From the NCBI GenBank assembly GCA_946055075.1, contig CAMGEN010000001.1, forward strand, positions 17,137-81,136: 64,000 bases of DNA, in the 5' to 3' direction. The position numbers and the translations under genes were made by a program. Shown one piece after another: positions 31,193 through 61,211 of the stretch (the stretch's first letter is position 1; every line of letters begins with the position of its first letter). This DNA is from an uncultured Verrucomicrobiota bacterium (lineage in GTDB: Bacteria > Verrucomicrobiota > Kiritimatiellia > RFP12 > UBA1067). Below the pieces are notes generated by a model, which made no database searches, was not told where the DNA came from, and saw only the letters and a program-made list of their open reading frames with translations.

Positions 31193-31241
31193 AATTCCCC
31201 ATTCCCCATTCCCTATTCCCCATTCCCCATCCCCATTCCCC
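31193..31241. repeat. CATTCCC heptamer array, 7 copies, immediately upstream of the queD start
   Basis: The sequence cattccccattccctattccccattccccatccccattcccc creates a spurious N-terminal extension in the ORF track (31155). Confidence 0.65.
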
Positions 31242-31658
31242 ATGACCACCGTTACCAAGACCGTCAAGTTCGATGCCGCGCACATCCTCACCAATCATGA
31301 GGGCCTCTGCCGTAATCTTCATGGACATACCTACCGCGTAGACGTCTCCGTCTCCTGTGATGATCCGTTGGCGGAGGGCGGCATGGTCATCGATTTCAAA
31401 GAGTTGAAACGCATTGCAACCGCGGAGATCTGCGACAGGTTCGATCATGCCTTCATCTACAACACCGCTTCCGAGGGCGAGCGCGAAATCGCGGCCGTTG
31501 TTGAGAAGCACGGCATGCGCACGGTTGCACTTCCGTATCGCTCGACGGCTGAGAATCTAGCCAGGCATTTCTTTGAGATACTGACTCCGCTGATTGCCGG
31601 ACTCTCTGCGGTTACGGTTTGGGAGACCGCTGATTCTTCGGCGACTTACCGGGGTTGA
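31242..31658 (+). CDS. queD: 6-carboxy-5,6,7,8-tetrahydropterin synthase (QueD / PTPS family)
   Basis: 139 aa from the ATG at 31242. MTTVTKTVKFDAAHILTNHEGLCRNLHGHTYRV carries the Cx5HxH Zn motif. Confidence 0.8.
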   Translation: MTTVTKTVKFDAAHILTNHEGLCRNLHGHTYRVDVSVSCDDPLAEGGMVIDFKELKRIATAEICDRFDHAFIYNTASEGEREIAAVVEKHGMRTVALPYRSTAENLARHFFEILTPLIAGLSAVTVWETADSSATYRG

Positions 31659-37103: not shown

Positions 37104-37132
37104 TACCCCACTTGACCTGTTGGGTGCCAGAC

Positions 37133-37172
37133 GCCGTGGATCCTAATTCCGATCCACGGCGTTTCATTTTTT
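37133..37172 (+). terminator. rho-independent terminator after mscS
   Basis: A 10-bp stem (gccgtggatc / gatccacggc) with an 8-nt loop is followed by gtttcatttttt. It marks the left edge of the low-GC island. Confidence 0.7.
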
Positions 37173-37270: not shown

Positions 37271-38163
37271 ATGGGCGAAGATCAGTGGGGTAAATATCTG
37301 CGGGCTAAGGAGCCGGGGGTGCGCGAGAAGGCGTACGCCTGGAAGACGGCGTCTTTGAATTCGCGGGACGTATTCGGGACTATGACATCACTAAGGATGA
37401 ATGGGTGCTTGACGGCGATACGGTGCGGTATGGTTCGTCTTATCGCCTGATGGAGATGTTGACGTTTGACATCAAACAAGAACGCGAGTTCTCGTATGTC
37501 GGACTAACCGAGTCGGAAATCATTCGTCACATTTCCCGATTTACATCTAACCTCTGGCAGATTCATGCCTTTGGTGAAGGGAATACGCGCACGACGGGAG
37601 TCTTTGTCATCAAGTATTTGCGGACGCTCGGCTTTGATGTCGCGAATGACGTTTTCGCCGAGAACGCTTGGTATTTCCGTAATGCGCTCGTCAGGGCGAA
37701 CTATACGAACGTGCCGAAGGGGATTGAGGAGACGACGGAATATCTGGAGTTGTTCTTCCGCAATCTGCTGTTAGGCGAGTCGAATGTTTTGCAAAGTCGC
37801 TATTTGCTTGTGGGAGGATGGAAAGGGTCTGACGACCCTACAAGCAACATTATGACCCCCGCAAGTAACGTCGACACCCCCGCAAGTAAAAGCATGACCC
37901 CCACAAGTAATAGCAGTGGAAACTGGGCGTTGTCTAAAGCGGTCAAACGGCTTTTGCTTGTTCTTGGTGATGATGAATTGACGAGAGAGCAGTTGATGAG
38001 GTCTTTGAAGCTCAAGGATCGTAAGAATTTTTCTGAATACTCGTTGGGACCGGCGCTCAAGATCGGTCTTGTCGAGATGACCCAGCCCGACAGTCCGCGC
38101 TCGCCAACACAGCGTTATCGTCTGACCGCCAGCGGTCAAAAGGCGAAGAAGAGCTGCGTATAA
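37271..38163 (+). pseudogene. Fic/DOC-family protein gene with a disrupted N-terminus (frameshift plus probable internal deletion), FGEGNTRT-type Fic motif, C-terminal wHTH
   Basis: The ATG at 37271 opens frame 2, which encodes MGEDQWGKYLRAKEPGVREKAYAWKTA (a classic Fic N-terminus). It then runs into nonsense and a stop near 37448. Frame 1 continues from about 37350 with FEFAGRIRDYDITKDEWVLDGDTV...HAFGEGNTRTTGV...; the ORF track starts this part at GTG 37405. The about 60 aa that normally separate AYAWKTA from F(E/D)G..D.AG are missing. Confidence 0.5.
37836..37915. repeat. three 21-bp tandem repeats inside the Fic gene
   Basis: (a)tgaccccc(g/a)caagtaa... occurs three times and encodes TSNIMTP/ASNVDTP/ASKSMTP. 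Confidence 0.5.
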
Positions 38164-38223
38164 TTTCGATGCCATACGGCAGTCGCTTATTCTCCCCGAT
38201 TTTCCCTCCCCCGAAGTCGGTTC

Positions 38224-38234
38224 TTTGGTATAAT
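38224..38234 (+). promoter_or_regulatory. extended -10 promoter TTTGGTATAAT giving a leaderless transcript for the CARF operon
   Basis: TATAAT is at 38229-38234 and the ATG at 38244, 9 nt downstream, with no SD. The ORF-track start at 38169 lies upstream of the promoter. Confidence 0.5.
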
Positions 38235-38243
38235 AGTGCCGCT

Positions 38244-39380
38244 ATGCGAGTTGATAAACGCACGATTCTGATTGCGGGGATGGGGACATCACCCGCGGTC
38301 CTCACCGAAACGGTGTGGGCGCTTTGCCATCAGAAGAACCCGATGGTGCCGGACGAGATCGTGGTGCTGGTCACGAAGTCTGGCAAGGAGCGGCTTTGCG
38401 ATGAGCTGTTGTCTGGTGAGAAGTCGGTTTGGGGTCAGATGCTTGCCGCGCTAAAGAAAGAAAAGATCAAGATTGATGGCAAATTGATCTTTGGAGATAC
38501 TTCAATCCGTGTTATTCCCGACGAACGCGGCAATGGTATCGCGGACCTTCGTTCTGGCGATGACAATCTTCGTGCGGCGGATTTCATGCTGCAGCAGGTC
38601 CGTCAGTACACCGAATCTCCGGACACGGTGGTGCTGGCGTCTATTGCCGGCGGACGCAAGACGATGAGCGCATTGCTGTTTTCCTGCATGAGCCTGCTGG
38701 GCCGCGAGGACGATAAGGTTTTTCACGTTCTCTTGCCGCCGGAATTTGAAGGCGGCGTTGAACCGCCGATGTACTATCCGGTGAAGGGCGTGACCTACGT
38801 CAATCGTAGGACCAAAATGAAGTACAAGAGCGACAAATACAAGAGCGAGCTGTTCGAGGTTCCGTTCGTCCGTATGCGCGGCTGGTATCAGGAGAAGTTC
38901 AAGACGATTCCGCCGTCTTACCGTACGCTGATCGAAAAGGTGCAGGACGCGGCACCGAAGGCCGTGGTTTATCCGAAGATCGAGATCGACGCGGCAAATG
39001 GCACGGTCAAGCTGAACGGTGCGCACGTCGCTTTGAGTAAGACCAATTTCGCCGCGCTTTATTTGATCGCTAATGGCTGTCCAATGAAAGACCTCCACGC
39101 GAAGCTCGTCGAGCTTCACAACGACCATAGTGACAAGCGCATCGACTGGCTTGACACTTTCCGCGAGGGCTCCCGCTTCGCCCGTATTGATGACATCGAC
39201 GATCTGCGCAAGACACTTTCGGAACTCCGCAAGAAGCTCCAGTCCGCCGGCTTCGTCAACGCCGAAACCCTCGTTCCCCAGCGCGGCAACCCGGTGACGT
39301 TCCCGATGGGGAAGATCAATTGCCTGGACAAGAAACTTAGGGATGTCCGCGGATGTCTTTTATTACGAAGGGACGCCTGA
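38244..39380 (+). CDS. CARF-domain protein with C-terminal winged-HTH-like domain (Csa3-like cyclic-oligonucleotide sensor/regulator)
   Basis: 378 aa from the ATG at 38244. The first strand/loop reads TILIAGMGTSPAVLTETVWAL (CARF GxSP motif). A second CARF signature, VVLASIAGGRKTMSALL, matches the D(L/V)TGGTKxMS sensor loop. The C-terminal part, VKLNGAHVALSKTNFAALYLIANGCPMKDLHAKLV, looks like an HTH. Confidence 0.7.
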   Translation: MRVDKRTILIAGMGTSPAVLTETVWALCHQKNPMVPDEIVVLVTKSGKERLCDELLSGEKSVWGQMLAALKKEKIKIDGKLIFGDTSIRVIPDERGNGIADLRSGDDNLRAADFMLQQVRQYTESPDTVVLASIAGGRKTMSALLFSCMSLLGREDDKVFHVLLPPEFEGGVEPPMYYPVKGVTYVNRRTKMKYKSDKYKSELFEVPFVRMRGWYQEKFKTIPPSYRTLIEKVQDAAPKAVVYPKIEIDAANGTVKLNGAHVALSKTNFAALYLIANGCPMKDLHAKLVELHNDHSDKRIDWLDTFREGSRFARIDDIDDLRKTLSELRKKLQSAGFVNAETLVPQRGNPVTFPMGKINCLDKKLRDVRGCLLLRRDA

Positions 39381-39381
39381 A

Positions 39382-41148
39382 ATGAACTATACTATACCCC
39401 GGAAACGCGAGTTGAGGCGAGAAATGGGTGTGATCTACATGGCTTTGGATGCCGTTACGAAATTTATGGCCAAATGGCTAGATGATAATCTGAAAACGTT
39501 GTCTTCGGATTATTGGGATAGGTATGTCGTTTCATCACTTTACGAGTCTCAGAGGAAGACCTTGGCGGAGAATGGTGCTAAGTCTTTGTTTGATTTGGAC
39601 CAGCCTACGATTTTGAGTGTTTTCCTTCAAAACAAGCAATTGCTTACTAGTAAGTTCGGAGTCGATCAACAGCTGTTTGGGGATGCCCATCGGATTAAAG
39701 ACATACGAAATAAGTATTTCCATAAAAATTCTAAACCTTTGGCCGCTAGTAGATATAAGCATGATCTTGGGACTATGAAATTGTTCTTGGAGGGACTTGG
39801 CGCGCCGGCAGACGTTGTTGCTGATATATGTGATTCGTGTGATAATGAGGGTGAAACGCCATCGGTGTCGTCGCGTGTAAATGACACGGTTATAAAGATT
39901 CCTGTTCCGCGGGTTGATAGCGCGATAGCTGTTGGAGTAAATTCTGATGCAAAGGGTACCCAGAGGCAAAAAGATATTGTAAGAGCAGTGAAAGTTGTTC
40001 GTAATTCGCCTCTTGCTGTTGGGGCTATGCCGCAAACGCTGTTTAGTGAATCAAGCCTGTTGTCCATGTGGCATAGGCCAGATGAGCTTTATGCAAGCAT
40101 TAAGAATTGTCTCAAGTTGGATTTTGACGAGTATAAATTTGGGAAGTGTTTGCTATATAGGCCAGAAGACAGGGTGCCCTCGGAATTGTCACTAGGTACT
40201 GGGTGGCAATGGGCAATTGTATTGCAAATATTCGAGGCTGATAAGGTTCGCATTGCCAAGGAGATAGCTAAGTTCAATCGTTTTGACGTGGAATGCAGCG
40301 TAACAGGAGATTATGCGGTGTGGAAATATGCATCGCCTCAAGGCAATCACGAAAGGGCCGCCGAAATTTCACAAATTGTATTTTTGCCTAACTGGTATGT
40401 AGATGCAATTGCGTCAACTCGCGGAGCAAAATATCAGAGGGATCGTTTAGGGGTTCGTCAAACCTTACAGGCTTCAGATGATGTGCGACGATTATATCTA
40501 GGAACATATGCGCCGCGTTCATTTGCGGAAATGGTGGCCATAGCAGATTATACATTTTCAATGCATCCTGAATGTGTAAAGAATCTCGGCGCGGAGATTT
40601 CTATTTGCGATCTTGGAAGCGGTAGTGGTCCGGCGACAATGGGGTTAATTTGGAGCCTGAAGAAGCTACGGCTGAGCTCTATTAGAAGAATTGTTGTCTA
40701 TGCCATAGATGGTAATGATTCAGCGTTGAAATTATTTGAGGAATTGTTGCATAGATTGCGTGGCGCTTGGGAGTCGGTTGAAATAGTTCTAAAGGCAGAG
40801 CGTAGTTTGTTGGATGACCAGACATTCGTGCCCTGTTGCTCGCAGGTGGATTTTGTAATATCTTCAAAATTTGTTCAAGAATTGCATTCGGAGAATGATA
40901 TTGGGCAGATGGAACAAATGGCTAATGCTATTTTGAAAACGGGTGGGATTTCCTACTGGATGGCGAATCCGGGAATCAATCTTGGTGCCGATAAACAGAT
41001 GGCGGCTTCAACATGCGGTAATGAAGTTATTGTGTCAAAAATAGGATTGAATATTCGAGTGTGCGGTATTCGTGGATGCGATGAATCTGTTGAAGAGGCA
41101 ATCTCCTTTAAGGTCGAAAGAAAGCTAACATCTAAATTAGGAGGATAA
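39382..41148 (+). CDS. HEPN-domain (Rx4H) N-terminus fused to a class I SAM-dependent methyltransferase domain
   Basis: 589 aa from the ATG at 39382, 1 nt after the CARF stop. The N-terminal IKDIRNKYFHKNS has the HEPN R-N-x3-H motif. The C-terminal ICDLGSGSGPATMGL (motif I) and VVYAIDGNDSAL (motif II) mark a Rossmann MTase. No NPPY/DPPW motif was seen. Confidence 0.6.
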   Translation: MNYTIPRKRELRREMGVIYMALDAVTKFMAKWLDDNLKTLSSDYWDRYVVSSLYESQRKTLAENGAKSLFDLDQPTILSVFLQNKQLLTSKFGVDQQLFGDAHRIKDIRNKYFHKNSKPLAASRYKHDLGTMKLFLEGLGAPADVVADICDSCDNEGETPSVSSRVNDTVIKIPVPRVDSAIAVGVNSDAKGTQRQKDIVRAVKVVRNSPLAVGAMPQTLFSESSLLSMWHRPDELYASIKNCLKLDFDEYKFGKCLLYRPEDRVPSELSLGTGWQWAIVLQIFEADKVRIAKEIAKFNRFDVECSVTGDYAVWKYASPQGNHERAAEISQIVFLPNWYVDAIASTRGAKYQRDRLGVRQTLQASDDVRRLYLGTYAPRSFAEMVAIADYTFSMHPECVKNLGAEISICDLGSGSGPATMGLIWSLKKLRLSSIRRIVVYAIDGNDSALKLFEELLHRLRGAWESVEIVLKAERSLLDDQTFVPCCSQVDFVISSKFVQELHSENDIGQMEQMANAILKTGGISYWMANPGINLGADKQMAASTCGNEVIVSKIGLNIRVCGIRGCDESVEEAISFKVERKLTSKLGG

Positions 41149-41151
41149 GCA

Positions 41152-42351
41152 ATGGCACGTCCGATGTATGTTAAGGTATCTGACATTCAGAAAGATGACG
41201 ATCAGTATAGAATTTACAACTTACCGCCAGACGCAAAGTATGTTGTTTCCGGTTGCGCGGGGAGTGGCAAGTCATCGCTCGCGTTGTTGTTCCTTGAAAG
41301 AGCCTTGCAAAGTGGTGAGGATGATAATACTCCGAATCAAGTATATTACATTGCGACGGTACATGAACTTGTTGAATGCGTTAGGAAACAGTTTGCTCGC
41401 TTTGCCACTGTTCCTAAATATAATGATTATGCTATAACTGGAGCGGCGTGGGCAGCCGGCAGCATATCTGATTTGCAACGTCGGGGTCAAAATCAGCACG
41501 GACCGTTTTTGATTCGTGGAAGGGAATGTATGAAATGCAATCCGCGTGGGTACAATAATGATTGGATTGATTTGAAAATTAACAAGCAACCCGATTATCT
41601 GCTAATTGATGAGGCGCAGGATTTTGATTTGCCGACACTAAAGAGCTTCGCTTCGTCGGTGAATAAGGGGTGCGTATTTTACGGAGATGATGCACAGAAG
41701 ATAATTGCTAATGGAACAAATTTAGACGACCTTTGCGCGGAGCTTCGAATTCAACGGCATTGTCTGAAGCGGAATTGGCGACTTTCCAAGGAGGTTGCGA
41801 AATTTGCTCAAGAGCTTCCTGGTAAAAAAGCAGATGATGATTTTGTAAGAAGATGCCGCGGAGAATACCAAGAAAAGCCGATTGTTTATGGATGTGCTAA
41901 TGAAGACATGATGGTGCAGTATATTCTGGAACGATGCCAAAAGGCAACAGTGGATGATGATATAGGTATTGTTTTGAGGAGTAATCAACAAATTCATAGA
42001 TGGTATCAGCACTTTAAGAACGTGCTTGGTGATAATATGGTTTCGGCTAGATACAGTTATGATACACTCTCGCCATTTGGAATTCCGACATCGCATTATG
42101 ACTATTTGCGGGAAACGCCTGTGAAAATTGTGCGTTATGAGGATGCAAAGGGACAGCAGTTTCGCGATGTTTATGTAATTGCAGATGATGCACTTATGAA
42201 TGATCCGTTAGGGATGAGTTGCTTTTACGTCGGTGTGACGAGGGCAGAACGCTACTTATATGTGCTGTATCAGGGTGGTAAACCAGCATTCCTTGAGAAC
42301 GTCGATCCTGATGTATACAGAACTTCAGATGTTAAGGAAATCAATTTCTAA
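41152..42351 (+). CDS. compact UvrD/Rep-like superfamily-1 helicase/ATPase
   Basis: 399 aa. Walker A VVSGCAGSGKSS, Walker B/motif II DYLLIDEAQDF, motif III VFYGDDAQKI and motif VI SCFYVGVTRAERYLYVLY. Confidence 0.65.
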   Translation: MARPMYVKVSDIQKDDDQYRIYNLPPDAKYVVSGCAGSGKSSLALLFLERALQSGEDDNTPNQVYYIATVHELVECVRKQFARFATVPKYNDYAITGAAWAAGSISDLQRRGQNQHGPFLIRGRECMKCNPRGYNNDWIDLKINKQPDYLLIDEAQDFDLPTLKSFASSVNKGCVFYGDDAQKIIANGTNLDDLCAELRIQRHCLKRNWRLSKEVAKFAQELPGKKADDDFVRRCRGEYQEKPIVYGCANEDMMVQYILERCQKATVDDDIGIVLRSNQQIHRWYQHFKNVLGDNMVSARYSYDTLSPFGIPTSHYDYLRETPVKIVRYEDAKGQQFRDVYVIADDALMNDPLGMSCFYVGVTRAERYLYVLYQGGKPAFLENVDPDVYRTSDVKEINF

Positions 42352-42356
42352 TAGTC

Positions 42357-44183
42357 ATGAAATACTACTTCCCGACCTCAACGTTGAATTTTGATGCGAT
42401 AGCATCTTCTATGTGCATTATGCCGGCTTCGTTTTACAGAGATGGAGCAGTTGGGTTTTCCCGCTATACGCGGAGCGCGGTTGATCGTGATGATAATAGC
42501 TGCTATTTGTATTCCCGACCAATTACATGGAATCATTCTATGAGTGATTCCGTTGACTATCCCATGCTGGTTGAGATAGAAGATGATAAACTGTCACTTA
42601 TTGGAAGGAAATGTGAGATGACTGGAGATGTTGACGTAATTCGTATTACTTCTCCATATTATTTTACGGCATCGAGTATTGTCACGCGGCGCATTCGGTT
42701 TTTGTTTAGGAATCAGGATGAACTTAAACTGATAGTCAATCGCACTCGGGCTAACGTGGCGGAGTGCAAAAGTCTTGGTGTAGCCGAGGCGTGGGGCGTG
42801 GATAACTTTGCAGTGATTGAAGGTGTTGACAAGCTTGTTGACTTTAACACGCTTAATGGCGGAATGATGTTCACGCAGGAGGATGGCAGTATGTGTCAAC
42901 CAGGAATATGGTCTGACTATGTGTATCAAGACCGGCTCGATGGCGCAAGGGTCGGCTTTAGGGCTGGGCAGTGGTTTCGCGCCATTATCACGGGGAAATT
43001 TATTGACACGATGCGAGAGCCGCTGACGTTTGAAATATGGCGGGATTCGTTGACACCCGAGTTTAATGCGCTTTTGGATATGATTTGCGGGGATGAGAAA
43101 CTCAAGTGGGATGTAAATCGTGATGCGGTTGTGGATTTCTGTGCCAGATGCTGGAAGGAGTGTCTTGCGAAGTCACATGATGAGGCAAGGCATGAAATAT
43201 TGAGATGTATAGCGAGGAGCATTGCCGACACAAGATATGTGTATCCTATAGATAGGATTCAAGATCCAGAAATGCAGGCCTTGGCGTGCTTCGTTGCCGC
43301 TGGGAAGCGAGAGGGGACGCTTGTAAATTTGCTGAAAACAGAACATATTCAGCTTCCTGAACTTGCTTTGTCGTTGCATGGCGCACTTGTTGGATACTCA
43401 ATTATGTCGCGGGCGCTATTTGAGAAAAGAAGTTATATTGACGAGGAAGCGAAATCGGAAGACGCGCCAATGGCACGAGGTGCAGCGAAGCAAAAATCTC
43501 CTGCGATAGATATGCAAGGACAAGAAGCTTCTCTTGGAATAAAGACCCAGGCCAATGTCTCGTGTGAGTCTTCTGGCGGAGATTTACCAGGATGGGCCAG
43601 ACAGATTTGGGAGAATGTCAAGGGTCTCGTTAGTTTCGCCAAGATCAAGGGGAAGAAGCGGGTACAGGTTGAGAAGGCTCTGTTTCAGGCGCTGAGTGAA
43701 TGCAAGGATGAGCGTGCGTTGTTGCGAGTCCTTCCCGGAAAGTATCAAGCTGATGGCTGGGGACGTCGGACTGCGCTTTATAAGGATTTGAAGAACTCAA
43801 TAGAAGTGGCGAAAGCTGGAATGCCAATAGATGGGGATTTGTTCAACCAGTCGAGTATGCTCAAGTCATTCGATTCTCGTTTGTTGATATATGATCAAGG
43901 GTTGATGGAAGAAATAGCAAAGCGATTTGCAAATATTGGAGACGAAAGGCTTCGGCTGTTACGAGACGTTGTGAGAAAGTTTGTTGCGAAATATGTTGCA
44001 GGTTACTACGGGCAACATCCGGATAGATACAAACAGGAAAATTCGGACCTGATTGATCATATGATCAAATGCTTTATTTCGCCAATCACTCCAGATTTGA
44101 ACTTTAAGTTTGAAGGAGATGAGGAAAATTCATTCGTTGCATTTCTCGAAGAACGATATCATTGTAAAAGAAATACGCATTGA
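42357..44183 (+). CDS. large hypothetical protein of the island operon (no recognisable domain)
   Basis: 608 aa, low GC and soluble. No motif was recognised by eye. Confidence 0.5.
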   Translation: MKYYFPTSTLNFDAIASSMCIMPASFYRDGAVGFSRYTRSAVDRDDNSCYLYSRPITWNHSMSDSVDYPMLVEIEDDKLSLIGRKCEMTGDVDVIRITSPYYFTASSIVTRRIRFLFRNQDELKLIVNRTRANVAECKSLGVAEAWGVDNFAVIEGVDKLVDFNTLNGGMMFTQEDGSMCQPGIWSDYVYQDRLDGARVGFRAGQWFRAIITGKFIDTMREPLTFEIWRDSLTPEFNALLDMICGDEKLKWDVNRDAVVDFCARCWKECLAKSHDEARHEILRCIARSIADTRYVYPIDRIQDPEMQALACFVAAGKREGTLVNLLKTEHIQLPELALSLHGALVGYSIMSRALFEKRSYIDEEAKSEDAPMARGAAKQKSPAIDMQGQEASLGIKTQANVSCESSGGDLPGWARQIWENVKGLVSFAKIKGKKRVQVEKALFQALSECKDERALLRVLPGKYQADGWGRRTALYKDLKNSIEVAKAGMPIDGDLFNQSSMLKSFDSRLLIYDQGLMEEIAKRFANIGDERLRLLRDVVRKFVAKYVAGYYGQHPDRYKQENSDLIDHMIKCFISPITPDLNFKFEGDEENSFVAFLEERYHCKRNTH

Positions 44184-45151
44184 TGGATTATAATGGGATG
44201 TTGAAGCCTGTGATTGTATCCGCGAGTCGCTCGACGGATATTCCTGCTTTTTATGCAGATTGGTTCTTGGAGCGGCTGAGGGCGGGATATTGCAATTGGG
44301 TGAATCCGTTTAATCGGGAAGTGTTTCGGGTTTCGTTTGAAGATGTTCGGATGATTGTGTTTTGGTCAAAGAACCCAAAGCCGATGATTGAACGGTTGGA
44401 TGAGCTGGAGGCGCTTGGATTTAAGAATTACTATTTTCAGTTTACACTGAATGACTATGTGCGTGAAGGTCTTGAGCCGAATGTCCCGCCGGTCGAGAAT
44501 CGGATTGAGACGTTTAAGGTCCTTGCGAAGCGAATTGGCAAGGAACGTGTAATCTGGCGATATGATCCGTTGATTCTTTCCGATGATTTATCGGTTGATG
44601 CTCTTCTGGAGCGTATCGCGAGAATAGGCAAGGAGTTGCGTGGGTCAACTGAGAAGCTTATTTTCAGTTTCGCAGATATACAGGATTATCGGAAGGTTGC
44701 TAAAAATCTGGCGGGGACCACTTGTCGCGAATTCACGGCCGCGGAAAAGATTGTGTTTGCCAAAGGGCTGCGCGAGATCAATCTTGATTTGGGGTTGGAA
44801 ATGGCGACTTGCGCGGAGGACATTGATCTTTCTGTATACGGTATTAAGCATAACAAGTGCGTCGATGATGAGCTGATGATGCGCCTGTTCAACACGGATT
44901 CCAAGCTGATGGAGTTTATCGGCGCGGAATACGACATGATTGATGGCTGGTTGATTAAGAAATCCAAGAAGGACAAAGGCCAGCGCAAAGCGTGTGGCTG
45001 CGTGATCAGCAAGGACGTCGGCATGTACAACACTTGTCCGCATCTTTGCAAATATTGCTATGCAAATGCTTCGGATGCTATTGTAATGAGGAATTTTAAG
45101 CATTGCAGTGAACGCCAGTATGACGATCTTCTGGTTTGTGAATTAGGATAA
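44180..45151 (+). CDS. DUF1848-like protein with C-terminal Cys cluster (CxCx12CPHxCxYCYAN)
   Basis: 323 aa. The C-terminal ACGCVISKDVGMYNTCPHLCKYCYANASD is a five-Cys metal/Fe-S-like cluster typical of the DUF1848 family. It overlaps the upstream gene by 4 nt. Confidence 0.5.
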   Translation: MMDYNGMLKPVIVSASRSTDIPAFYADWFLERLRAGYCNWVNPFNREVFRVSFEDVRMIVFWSKNPKPMIERLDELEALGFKNYYFQFTLNDYVREGLEPNVPPVENRIETFKVLAKRIGKERVIWRYDPLILSDDLSVDALLERIARIGKELRGSTEKLIFSFADIQDYRKVAKNLAGTTCREFTAAEKIVFAKGLREINLDLGLEMATCAEDIDLSVYGIKHNKCVDDELMMRLFNTDSKLMEFIGAEYDMIDGWLIKKSKKDKGQRKACGCVISKDVGMYNTCPHLCKYCYANASDAIVMRNFKHCSERQYDDLLVCELG

Positions 45152-45155
45152 GGAC

Positions 45156-45575
45156 ATGGATGCAATACCACTTAGATGGCTTGAAAAGGCGAGGTCGGAA
45201 ATTGATGCGTATGATCAGTTTGTGTCGGCATACATCGCAATGAACTATCTTTATGGTGGTCGGAGCGAATCGTCTGAATTGAAGCGATTTGTGAATTGCG
45301 CAATGGAGATTTGTGAAATGTCCAACGTTGATCCCTTTTCGTTCGAACATACGGAATATTTGGCTGACGGCGTATTGAATATGCACCCCAAACATGTTGG
45401 AGAGCGTGTTGCGGTCATTTCTGGAGATCGAGTTTCATTGTTCTCTGCGATTTACTTGGTTCGATGTAATTTGTTTCATGGAAATAAAGATGTTGCGTGC
45501 GAGCGAGACATGCGTTTGTCGGCGCAAGGTGGAGGAATCTTAATTGGGATTTTAACAGCGCTTAGTCACGCGTGA
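45156..45575 (+). CDS. small HEPN-domain protein (RxxxxHG motif)
   Basis: 139 aa. LFSAIYLVRCNLFHGNKD contains an Rx4HG HEPN catalytic motif. It is the last gene of the operon. Confidence 0.55.
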   Translation: MDAIPLRWLEKARSEIDAYDQFVSAYIAMNYLYGGRSESSELKRFVNCAMEICEMSNVDPFSFEHTEYLADGVLNMHPKHVGERVAVISGDRVSLFSAIYLVRCNLFHGNKDVACERDMRLSAQGGGILIGILTALSHA

Positions 45576-45670: not shown

Positions 45671-46036
45671 ATGTACGAGTTTCATGGAACAGTTAAGCGT
45701 GTGGGTGAACTTCAGAAGTTCTCCAGCGGATTTGAGAAGCAGGATCTGATTGTCGAAGAAGACAAAGACGGCAGCTGGCCGAATGTGGTTGCTTTCACGT
45801 TTAAGAAGAATGCGATTTCAAAATTGGCGGGTGTAACCGCAGGCGCTCATGTAAAAGTTGGTTTTGTTATCGATGGTCGCGAGTGGACCGATTCCAAGAC
45901 GGGCAAGGTGAAATATTTCTCAGACTTGACCGCTTTGAGGCTGGAGGTTGATGGTCATCGCGAACTTGTACCTGAACCTGCGGATCCGCCAGGAGGGGAT
46001 CCTTTTGCGGATGATAACGAGGAACCCCCATTCTAA
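45671..46036 (+). CDS. DUF3127-family small protein with SSB-like acidic C-terminal tail (..DDNEEPPF)
   Basis: 121 aa. The FSSGF.K.DL...FTFKKN...GxxVKVxFxIDGREWTDSKTGKVKYF core is OB-fold/SSB-like. It is a paralogue of 56066-56452. Confidence 0.55.
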   Translation: MYEFHGTVKRVGELQKFSSGFEKQDLIVEEDKDGSWPNVVAFTFKKNAISKLAGVTAGAHVKVGFVIDGREWTDSKTGKVKYFSDLTALRLEVDGHRELVPEPADPPGGDPFADDNEEPPF

Positions 46037-59135: not shown

Positions 59136-61211
59136 ATGAATGCGACCTATCAACCACCTGAAGACGAGAATTGCCTGGAGAAATACGGCACCGATCTTAC
59201 CGCGCTCGCAAGGAGCGGCAAGTTGGATCCGGTAATTGGACGTGACACTGAGATTCGCGATGCGATTAGGATTCTTTCCCGCAAGACCAAGAACAATCCC
59301 GTGTTGATCGGCGAGCCTGGCGTCGGTAAGACCGCCATCGTCGAAGGACTCGCCCAGCGGATTGTGCGCGGTGATGTGCCGGAAGGTCTTAAAGACCGTA
59401 TGGTCTTCTCGCTTGACATGACGGCGCTTCTTGCCGGCGCGTCTTATCGTGGACAGTTTGAGGAACGTCTTAAGGCGGTCCTTAAGAAGGTGAAGGATTC
59501 CGAGGGACGGATTATTCTTTTTATCGATGAAATCCATACTATCGTCGGCGCGGGTAAGACCGAAGGTAGTGCCGATGCCGGAAATATGCTCAAGCCGATG
59601 CTTGCCCGCGGCGAACTTCATTGCGTTGGTGCGACGACTCTTGACGAATACAGGCAGTATATGGAGAAGGACAAGGCGCTTGAGCGCCGTTTCCAGCCGG
59701 TGATGGTCGATCCTCCTTCGGAAGAGGATGCGATTTCGATACTCCGCGGGATTAAGGAGCGTTTTGAGAAATATCATAACGTCCATATTCGTGATGAGGC
59801 GCTGGTGAGTTCGGTTGTGCTTTCCGCGCGCTACATTCAGGATCGTTTCCTTCCGGATAAAGCGATCGATTTGCTCGATGAGGCTTGTGCGCGCATTCGC
59901 ACGGAGATGGATTCTTGTCCCCAGGAACTTGACGAAATCTCGCGACATGTGCGCCGTCTTGAAATTGAGGAGATTGCGCTCAAGAAGGAGAAGGACGAGG
60001 CATCGAAGAAGCGGCTTGAAGAACTGCAGAAGGAGCTCGCAACGCTTAAGGTTAAGAGCGATGCGATGACTACACAGTGGAAGGCCGAGAAGACTGCGCT
60101 TGAAGACGTGCGCAGGGTCCGTATGCGTCTTGACGAAGAACGTAATAAATGCGAGCAGGCGATCGCGAGCGGTGATAATGAGACTGCGGCGCGGCTCAAG
60201 TACGGAGTGATTCCGGAGCTCGAGAAGAAACTCAAGATCCATGAATGCGACCTCAAGAAGAATACGGCGAATACGCTCCTCAAGGAAGTAGTTGATGCGG
60301 ATGAGATTGCCGAGGTGGTCTCGCGCTGGAGTGGAATTCCAGTGACTAAGCTTCTGGAAGGAGAGCGCGAGAAGCTTGTGCGGCTGAGCGCGATTCTTCA
60401 TGAGCGCGTCATCGGACAGGATAAGGCGGTGGATGCCGTCGCCGACGCTGTGCTTCGTTCGCGTGCCGGGATCAAGAATCGTCAGCGTCCCGTTGGCGCT
60501 TTTCTGTTCCTCGGTCCGACCGGCGTCGGCAAGACCGAGCTCGCCAAGGCGCTTGCGAAAGAGCTTTTCGACGATGAGAACGCGATGGTGCGGCTCGACA
60601 TGTCGGAATACATGGAGAAGTTCGCGGTCTCGCGTCTTGTCGGCGCGCCGCCCGGATATGTCGGCTTTGAAGACGGCGGACAGCTTACGGAGGCCGTTCG
60701 CCGGAAGCAGTTCTCGGTCGTGCTGCTGGACGAAATTGAGAAGGCGCATCCAGATGTTTTCAATTTGCTACTGCAGGTGATGGATGACGGACGCCTTACC
60801 GACTCCCATGGTCGTACCGTCTCGTTCAAAAATACGGTCATTATCATGACCTCTAACGCGCCAAAGGCTTCGCTTAAGGACCTGTTCCGCCCCGAATTCC
60901 TTAATCGCGTGGACGAGATCCTTGAATTCGAACCGCTCACTCAGGATCAGATCCGTGAGATCGTGAAGCTGCAGCTCAGGGATTTTGAGAAGCGTCTCGC
61001 CGATCAGGAGCTGAAGCTCGCAGTCGACGAAGGCGCGATGGAGGTACTTGTGAAGGATGGATACGATCCTGCCTTTGGAGCGCGTCCCGTGAAGCGCGCG
61101 ATCCAGCGCGATCTCGAGACTCCCATTGCTCGCGCGATCGTTGCCGGTAAGTATCCGCCAGGTTCGCTGATCCGAGCTTCCGTCTCCGACTCCAAGATTG
61201 TGATACAATAA
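59136..61211 (+). CDS. clpB: ClpB-family AAA+ disaggregase lacking the N-terminal domain
   Basis: 691 aa. It begins directly at NBD1 ([42 protein letters not shown]) and has an M-domain coiled coil and an NBD2 ([15 protein letters not shown], sensor-2 [10 protein letters not shown]). An in-frame stop lies 9 nt upstream of the ATG. Confidence 0.85.

Follow-up and report, generated by a model that had tools for sequence, protein, structure and literature searches.

We analysed a 64,000-nucleotide stretch of contig CAMGEN010000001.1, from an uncultured Verrucomicrobiota bacterium of the Kiritimatiellia (the window, hereafter), in which the open reading frame (ORF) at 39382-41148 encodes a HEPN domain fused to a class I S-adenosylmethionine (SAM)-dependent methyltransferase. 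The protein is almost certainly one subunit of a cassette of five genes, arranged head to tail on the + strand, which encode a CARF protein, the HEPN-methyltransferase, a superfamily 1 (SF1) helicase, a protein that we call protein X and a DUF1848 protein. As judged from sequence and context, we narrowly favour the view that the ORF encodes the subunit in which effector and methyltransferase are joined, and that the five-gene cassette, carried by an island acquired through horizontal transfer, is most likely directed against phages or plasmids; that the cassette has a defence function of some kind appears likely. The initial annotation of the window had considered this ORF by itself. The protein is not a stand-alone effector, and the more interesting result lies beyond the ORF, in a conserved cassette with interchangeable nuclease domains.

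The same order of five genes is observed at divergent homologs from independent samples, namely at the loci L001, L002-5, L007 (a Kiritimatiellia metagenome-assembled genome, MAG) and L096. L095 has the same downstream genes, on a contig that begins just upstream of the HEPN-methyltransferase gene, where the CARF position is not readable. A split version, with the order CARF, HEPN (191 residues), adaptor-methyltransferase (376 residues), helicase, protein X and DUF1848, is found at L008/L009. The core of four genes, composed of the methyltransferase, a UvrD-like SF1 helicase, a protein X of 520-720 residues and DUF1848, keeps its gene order in hundreds of metagenomic lineages, and it is also present in the human-gut contig L100. 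On this same core, the methyltransferase carries an N-terminal NERD domain at L012/13, a C-terminal PIN_4 domain at L014, or no fused domain at all. An N-terminal Schlafen/AlbA_2 version (P0011/L010) lies on a contig that ends soon after the helicase gene and on which protein X and DUF1848 were not seen. Among 105 representatives of the methyltransferase family, the fused domain was NERD in 19, HEPN_Swt1 in 10, PIN_4 in 6 and AlbA_2 in 1.

The cassette was also surveyed in the reverse direction, starting from DUF1848, in 80 metagenomic loci, 27 of which have at least 6.5 kb of upstream DNA. The methyltransferase family was present in 21 and the helicase in 31 of the 80; in the subset with long upstream DNA, the methyltransferase family was found at 14 loci and all four core genes together at 10. 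HEPN was absent from all 80 loci, and the only trace of CARF was one weak match. The four-gene system is thus common and its HEPN variant rare. CARF goes specifically with HEPN: wherever the DNA upstream of a HEPN version is available, a CARF homolog immediately precedes it.

The ORF is uninterrupted from 39343 to 41148 on the + strand and encodes 601 amino acids, the numbering used here; a start at Met14 (39382) gives a product of 588 amino acids. The latter start is more likely on sequence grounds, because the N termini of most homologs coincide with it, it lies 1 nt past the CARF stop codon and a GAAGGGA string is found upstream; gene callers also picked it for two proteins that share a 90% cluster with this one. 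The HEPN domain is followed by a variable linker, an alpha/beta adaptor domain and the methyltransferase module (Table 1). The AlphaFold model of residues 205-601, with a predicted local distance difference test (pLDDT) score of 80, displays a disordered stretch, the alpha/beta domain and then a Rossmann methyltransferase fold; pLDDT is below 50 in its first 36 residues (205-240). The adaptor has a predicted helix-helix-strand-strand-helix-strand-strand fold (pLDDT 77-92) and no Pfam match. Its profile also matches the unfused methyltransferase subunits P0010 and P0039, the NERD version P0079 and the AlbA_2 version P0011, and the adaptor thus belongs to the methyltransferase subunit. Since the HEPN domain and the adaptor-methyltransferase are separate genes at L008/L009, the protein is a fusion of two neighbouring subunits.

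Such a composition could in principle arise from chance motifs, or from an assembly or frameshift error that joined two genes: taken alone, the window protein gives a sub-threshold HEPN match and no methyltransferase match in Pfam, and a split-gene version exists. However, the same fusion recurs in independent samples, in about 35 distinct protein clusters, and both domains are conserved and have confident predicted folds, which refutes an artefact and leaves it a vanishingly small probability. That the HEPN-methyltransferase architecture is real can be taken as practically assured. A search of 5.8 billion proteins returned 24 relatives of the window protein; the only name given to these proteins in any source is 'SAM-dependent methyltransferase'. 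A confirmed HEPN-methyltransferase relative was found in two of 185,579 GTDB species representatives, one Kiritimatiellia MAG and one rumen MAG, both of the type C form. The plasmid collection contained no relative of either the HEPN-methyltransferase or the core methyltransferase, and only the NERD domain of a NERD version was matched there.

The initial annotation had recognized a HEPN motif, IRNKYFH, in the N-terminal part of the protein, and its position is confirmed at residues 121-127 (39703-39723). It is the sole Rx4-6H string in the protein, and about 0.02 RNxxxH strings would be expected by chance for this size and composition. Residues R122, N123, Y125 and H127 are invariant in an alignment of 14 full-length relatives. 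With the Pfam HEPN_Swt1 profile (PF18731), the window protein gives an E-value of 0.0023 and 18.6 bits over profile positions 2-112 of 115, and by itself falls below the gathering cut-off of 27.5 bits. The whole profile is matched in about 20 relatives, and three more distant HEPN-methyltransferase fusions exceed the cut-off, P0065 with 50.5 bits, P0041 with 45.6 bits and P0034 with 29.6 bits; the profile of the window's N-terminal family matches these three at E-values of 2e-24, 4e-15 and 1e-42, respectively. It is this family context, with homologs above the cut-off and RNxxxH retained, that led us to accept the HEPN call for a protein that is sub-threshold on its own. The initial annotation had also proposed predicting the structure of both halves and searching for their folds. 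This gave a clear fold for the methyltransferase and, for the HEPN domain, an all-alpha model (pLDDT 86) whose best Foldseek match in the PDB is a HEPN protein, 2hsb, at a weak E-value of 0.62; HepT toxins are also found among the HEPN matches. A search of PDB sequences with the HEPN profile returned nothing meaningful. The HEPN call is sound from sequence and weakly checked by structure.

The C-terminal half was correctly described in the initial annotation as a class I SAM-dependent methyltransferase, with motif I and the post-I strand at the positions given there, and its residues D423, G425, G427, D456, G457 and N458 are fully or almost fully conserved within the family. Superposition of the methyltransferase model onto the PDB with Foldseek gave 500 matches at E-values of 0.001 or below, the best with an E-value of 2.7e-10 and a probability of 1.0. 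The best matches are to chain 7, probably METTL17, in the assembly intermediates 8csp/8csu/8css of the human mitoribosome small subunit; NNMT, RlmA(I) and METTL6 rank closely behind. A sequence profile search of the PDB matched 3sm3 at 8e-4, and several homologs exceed the Pfam cut-offs for Methyltransf_11, _23, _31 or UbiE.

A profile search run exhaustively over 1.84 billion representatives revealed a methyltransferase family of 855 representative clusters at E-values of 0.001 or below, 141 of them at 1e-30 or below, for which there is no Pfam model. The family shares the signature LPxW...Y..TYxPR...DxGxG...DGN...D....xK...E, to which the window protein contributes P349 and W351 (LPxW) and D503, and nearly all of the 143 newly listed representatives that were checked contain [ST]YxPR. 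Just past strand 4 lie K509 and E513, the sole residues invariant in all 105 representatives.

This last observation bears on a different division of labour, in which the HEPN domain would be a non-catalytic sensor of RNA or nucleotides and the methyltransferase the effector, for example by methylating, and so inactivating, host or phage RNA, DNA or protein. K509 and E513 being the most conserved residues of the whole family would be consistent with such a role, as would a methyltransferase that stays constant while the fused domains vary, and some HEPN domains, such as that of eukaryotic Swt1, are non-catalytic binders (PMC3710099). Nonetheless, RNxxxH is retained in all 38 complete homologs that match the HEPN profile, over a deep divergence, which is typical of active HEPN RNases, and NERD, PIN and AlbA_2 are all nuclease families, which suggests that it is the fused domain that supplies nuclease activity. 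We thus consider a HEPN sensor improbable, while the conserved motif makes the domain quite probably an active RNase.

The signature helix aligns with the N-terminal helix of Rsm22. Indeed, hhalign against a genuine Rsm22 protein (PF09243, 4e-18) gave a probability of 97.3 and an E-value of 2.7e-11, with an alignment that starts exactly at the Y..TYxPR helix. The Rsm22 Pfam model, by contrast, has no match in the window protein (E-values up to 0.1) or in the 105 representatives (E-values up to 0.001), so that the module is, from sequence comparison, a distant relative rather than a member of the Rsm22/METTL17 family. Most members of the family studied here have a C-terminal cysteine cluster followed by 'HS....D.SKV.YR' (alignment A7). 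In METTL17, the C-terminal cysteine cluster binds an Fe-S cluster, and the cluster of the present family resembles that region.

The initial annotation had remarked on the lack of an NPPY/DPPW amino-methyltransferase motif, and a motif scan found none. The motif IV position reads S-S-K-F, which rules out canonical amino-methyltransferase chemistry. SSKF was also considered as a degenerate NPPF of a gamma-class DNA methyltransferase and rejected, as the segment aligns with a generic 'D.vvss.vl.el' strand 4, that of Methyltransf_11/12 and Rsm22. A DNA substrate would be favoured by the UvrD-type helicase and by NERD as the commonest fused domain; an RNA substrate would be favoured by the kinship with Rsm22/METTL17 and by the RNase-type domains. 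Any specific substrate that one might name is at present doubtful.

The CARF protein matches Pfam Cas_NE0113 at 1.8e-33, TIGR02584 at 9e-49 and the PADLOC CARF5 models at 3.6e-66, and the conserved motifs GMGTSPAVLTE and AGGRKTMSA are both present; its true start is probably Met26, at 38244. Sequence matches make its C-terminal domain a probable OmpR-like winged helix, in agreement with the published prediction that NE0113 CARF proteins are transcription regulators (PMC4012209). The case for CARF-dependent control of the system is evenly balanced. The GC content of the CARF gene is 0.55, which is host-like, as compared with 0.445 for 39382-45151. Given this host-like value next to low-GC cassette genes, CARF and the other four genes may have different histories.

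A CARF protein that is merely the transcription factor of the operon would also suit a self-contained toxin-antidote unit, in which a constitutive HEPN toxin is restrained in cis by the methyltransferase, which would methylate either the RNase or its RNA target. The likely winged helix and the predicted regulatory role of NE0113 proteins are in line with this, the HEPN domain and the methyltransferase can be separate adjacent genes, and there is a parallel in HEPN-MNT pairs, where a nucleotidyltransferase modifies the HEPN toxin and whose HepT structures are among the fold matches. But the methyltransferase also occurs unfused or joined to domains other than HEPN, and is then invariably accompanied by the helicase, protein X and DUF1848; its role can therefore not be specific to neutralising HEPN, and we regard a toxin-antidote unit as unlikely.

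The helicase gene comes after the methyltransferase gene in all cassettes. In the window, its Walker A (GCAGSGKS, 41251-41274) and Walker B (LLIDEAQD, 41599-41622) motifs are both intact, and a PDB profile search gave HelD (1.6e-34) as the best match, with UvrD (9e-23), GajB of Gabija (2e-17), Rep and PcrA also found. Protein X is fast-evolving, with only an N-terminal M.YY.P.S..N motif and a few glycines conserved, and has no match in Pfam, PADLOC, NCBIfam or the PDB; searched against the PDB, the profiles of protein X and DUF1848 gave chance-level matches only (U1A, PDE1B, caspase-3). The DUF1848 protein is highly conserved and carries a C-terminal CPHLCKYC segment (CX3CX2C, 45035-45058) with invariant cysteines. 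This motif resembles the N-terminal cluster motif of radical SAM enzymes of the COG1533/PA0069 type but lies at the opposite end of the protein, and DUF1848 may be a circularly permuted radical-SAM-like enzyme. At L044 (9926-11824), the DUF1848 ORF has 633 residues, with an extra C-terminal region of about 290 residues.

In the defence reading that we favour, the core would combine ATP-driven translocation along a nucleic acid with two SAM-using enzymes that mark or inspect it, in a manner resembling restriction-modification, and the nuclease-type domain on the methyltransferase subunit would execute the response. The methyltransferase would keep a working SAM pocket, with a substrate other than a canonical exocyclic-amine or C5 DNA target. 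The HEPN domain would dimerise to form a metal-independent RNase that, once triggered, cuts RNA and leads to arrest of the infected cell; we infer RNA cleavage and growth arrest following the interpretation given for HEPN on DUF499 ATPases and NERD on PglW (PMC3710099, PMC12839542). CARF would sense a nucleotide signal, which might be a cyclic oligoadenylate whose synthase is encoded elsewhere in the genome or else products of RNA damage, and would then switch on the operon through its winged helix or gate HEPN directly, like a split Csx1/Csm6. The strict coupling of CARF and HEPN recalls Csm6/Csx1 and suggests that a ligand controls either the transcription of a toxic operon or the RNase itself. 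Taken to its full extent, this would make the four-gene core a widespread unnamed defence system with a new modification chemistry and the HEPN variant a split, CRISPR-independent CARF-HEPN switch that controls a restriction-modification-like machine, a proposal that we put forward tentatively, as somewhat less probable than its contrary.

Several observations weigh against the defence reading. The window contains no CRISPR array by tandem-repeat scan and no Cas10 or cyclase gene in the scan for these, which covered the cassette region and, outside it, the ten largest ORFs; no Cas10, cyclase or CRISPR genes occur in the Pfam lists of the related loci either. Neither PADLOC 2.0 nor NCBIfam has a model that matches the HEPN-methyltransferase or protein X, the gap in PADLOC being the relevant one here. 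The protein has no [DNS]PP[YFWH], PC[QHN] or ENV motif, which weakens a simple restriction-modification analogy, and the C-terminal cysteine cluster of the family is lost in the window subtype (40963-41145). The matches of the CARF C-terminal third to the OmpR-type winged helix of ArlR/RstA, albeit repeated, are weak (E-values of 0.05-0.16). Finally, DUF1848 also occurs solo in ordinary contexts, as in a Parabacteroides distasonis plasmid copy (L098) and at L060, L068 and L072.

Solitary DUF1848 genes would also be in keeping with a cassette that is a housekeeping or stress module for RNA modification, ribosome biogenesis or RNA repair, with Rsm22-like methylation of rRNA or tRNA, remodelling of ribonucleoproteins by the helicase and RNA processing by HEPN. 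The distant relationship of the methyltransferase to Rsm22/METTL17 points in the same direction, the best PDB relative of the helicase, HelD, is an RNA-polymerase recycling factor, and HEPN, PIN and Schlafen domains also act in RNA processing (PMC3710099). Such a module is however difficult to reconcile with a cassette that lies on a low-GC island (GC content of 0.445 in 39382-45151 and of 0.57 and 0.55 in the flanks), with its patchy distribution over the GTDB species representatives and with the swapping of the fused nuclease domains, among them the DNase-like NERD. Protein X evolves fast, the Rsm22 Pfam model finds no match in the methyltransferase, and genes of defence type lie beside the cassette here or in relatives, namely a truncated Fic/PDC-S72, RT_UG39, an NsnB-like AAA_15 ATPase and FRG/PDC-S15. 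A housekeeping role therefore seems improbable to us.

Comparison with known systems places the cassette among multi-gene, restriction-modification-like or abortive-infection systems with embedded nuclease effectors, a kind that we rate it as fitting. Restriction-modification-like systems can contain HEPN domains of the Swt1/Abi2 type and NERD domains as built-in backup effectors, and the HEPN domain on the DUF499 ATPase of the Hma/BREX-related type 1 system is interpreted as a backup suicide RNase (PMC3710099; PMC12839542). As in the cassette, an N-terminal HEPN domain of the Swt1/Abi2 family is there borne by a core subunit of a system that combines a methyltransferase and a helicase. The carrier of HEPN is here a methyltransferase instead of an AAA+ ATPase, the methyltransferase is Rsm22-like and lacks NPPY instead of being an N6-adenine enzyme, and the helicase is a minimal UvrD-like SF1A protein accompanied by DUF1848, protein X and CARF.

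With Csm6/Csx1, the cassette shares the pairing of a CARF sensor with an Rx4-6H HEPN RNase, CARF being found here only with the HEPN versions. Unlike in those proteins, CARF and HEPN are on separate polypeptides, CARF with a probable winged helix and HEPN with the methyltransferase, and the HEPN domain belongs to the Swt1/Abi2 and not to the Csm6/Csx1 type. Moreover, the scans described above revealed neither cas genes nor a CRISPR array in the 64-kb window, and the related loci showed none either.

Fusions of a methylase to a reverse transcriptase (RT) have been described (Mestre 2022, PMC9226505), with DUF1848 as the associated gene in UG25 and a UvrD helicase in UG35, and the PADLOC model RTasDUF1848, which the window DUF1848 matches, derives from that work. 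The resemblance lies in a methyltransferase fused to a variable partner, together with DUF1848 as in UG25 or a UvrD-like helicase as in UG35, and a UG39-type RT is even found downstream of the cassette at L002-5, L015 and L017. The partner of the methyltransferase is here HEPN, however, with no RT in the protein or in the window, and no RT fused to this methyltransferase family was found in the 143 newly listed representatives (no YxDD) or in the 80 DUF1848 loci.

Among known methyltransferase families, Rsm22/METTL17 (PF09243) comes closest, with a similarity that extends to the helix preceding motif I, but the window family has its own signature (LPxW, TYxPR, DGN, K...E) and a completely different genomic context. 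The initial annotation knew of no described effector type in which a HEPN nuclease is fused to a methyltransferase. Such a fusion is not entirely without precedent, because occasional fusions of DUF86-type HEPN to nucleic-acid methylases are listed by Anantharaman 2013 (PMC3710099), which likewise place HEPN and a methylase on one polypeptide; as far as a comparison with the listing in Table 1 of that study goes, the HEPN family concerned (HEPN-M) is DUF86, of the MNT-HEPN toxin-antitoxin type. As to the specific architecture, a search of open-access papers and bioRxiv turned up neither a Swt1-like HEPN joined to an Rsm22-like methyltransferase nor the four-gene core or its CARF-linked variant, and DUF1848 appears there in a relevant context only in Mestre 2022 (PMC9226505). 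There is a reasonable chance that the core cassette is a defence system not yet described.

If the cassette is a defence system, it would be a new multi-gene family common in gut, rumen and environmental metagenomes, as indicated by the 855 methyltransferase clusters; it would concern three components without assigned function, namely DUF1848, protein X and the methyltransferase family without a Pfam model, and would represent a recruitment of CARF sensing outside CRISPR-Cas. The swappable nuclease domains constitute a natural experiment on effector exchange over a constant core for sensing or modification. A methyltransferase paired with a radical-SAM-like protein may be a sign of a nucleic-acid modification not yet described, and the link with the UG25/UG35 RTs could explain the roles of the accessory genes in those systems.

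Table 1. Coordinates in the window of the cassette genes and of the domains and motifs of the HEPN-methyltransferase
Feature	Position	Strand	Basis or remark
CARF sensor (Cas_NE0113 / CARF5 type)	38169..39380	+	Pfam, TIGR02584, PADLOC
HEPN-linker-adaptor-class I methyltransferase protein	39382..41148	+	588 aa (601 aa from 39343)
Swt1-like HEPN domain, aa 14-166	39382..39840	+	all-alpha model, HEPN_Swt1 match
Predicted catalytic motif R122-N-K-Y-F-H127	39706..39723	+	invariant in alignments A1, A3
Variable linker, aa 167-228, probably disordered	39841..40026	+	not alignable between subtypes; low pLDDT
Alpha/beta adaptor domain, aa ~229-342, ~110 aa	40027..40368	+	predicted structure, profile matches
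Class I SAM-dependent methyltransferase module, aa 343-601	40369..41145	+	Foldseek, PDB profile, hhalign
Signature helix YLGTYAPRSF (Y385, T388, Y389, P391, R392)	40495..40524	+	nearly invariant in 105 representatives
Motif I ICDLGSGSG (D423, G425, G427), aa 421-429	40603..40629	+	
Post-I strand YAIDGND (D456, G457, N458), aa 453-459	40699..40719	+	
Strand 4 and motif IV position, DFVISSKFVQEL	40849..40884	+	alignment, model
Minimal UvrD-like SF1A helicase	41152..42351	+	Pfam, PADLOC
Protein X, 608 aa	42357..44183	+	position shared by all cassettes
DUF1848 protein	44180..45151	+	Pfam DUF1848 4.8e-98; PADLOC RTasDUF1848 2.2e-40

Ahead of the island, a strong terminator-like hairpin is found at 37129-37164. 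The Fic/DOC gene upstream of the cassette (37405-38163, + strand) is truncated at its N-terminal end, its match to PADLOC PDC-S72 starting at profile position 134, and contains at 37852-37915 a 21-bp tandem repeat in three copies that encodes a repeated T-P-A-S-N/K-type peptide. Directly after DUF1848, an ORF of 139 residues (45156-45575, + strand) carries a second Rx4H-like string, VRCNLFHGNK, and has no Pfam or PADLOC match. At the corresponding site in L002-5, a gene of 234 residues and RT_UG39 precede DUF3127, and the 139-residue ORF is similar to neither. The UG39-type RT lies one to two genes downstream of DUF1848 in L002 (13272-15038), L015 (4381-5952) and L017 (5052-5459). The window is without this RT and has kept the DUF3127 gene (45671-46036, 60% identity to the L002 copy); this pattern, with an RT that recurs in relatives, suggests that the RT was deleted in the window or that it is a modular accessory gene.

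Elsewhere in the window, a 7-bp tandem repeat, ATTCCCC, is present in 7.3 copies between housekeeping genes (31194-31243). A 691-residue AAA+ protein encoded at 59136-61211 on the + strand matches PADLOC PDC-M37B at 1.5e-44 and DolB at 2.7e-33, and may be a housekeeping Clp/FtsH-like ATPase or a part of another candidate defence locus.

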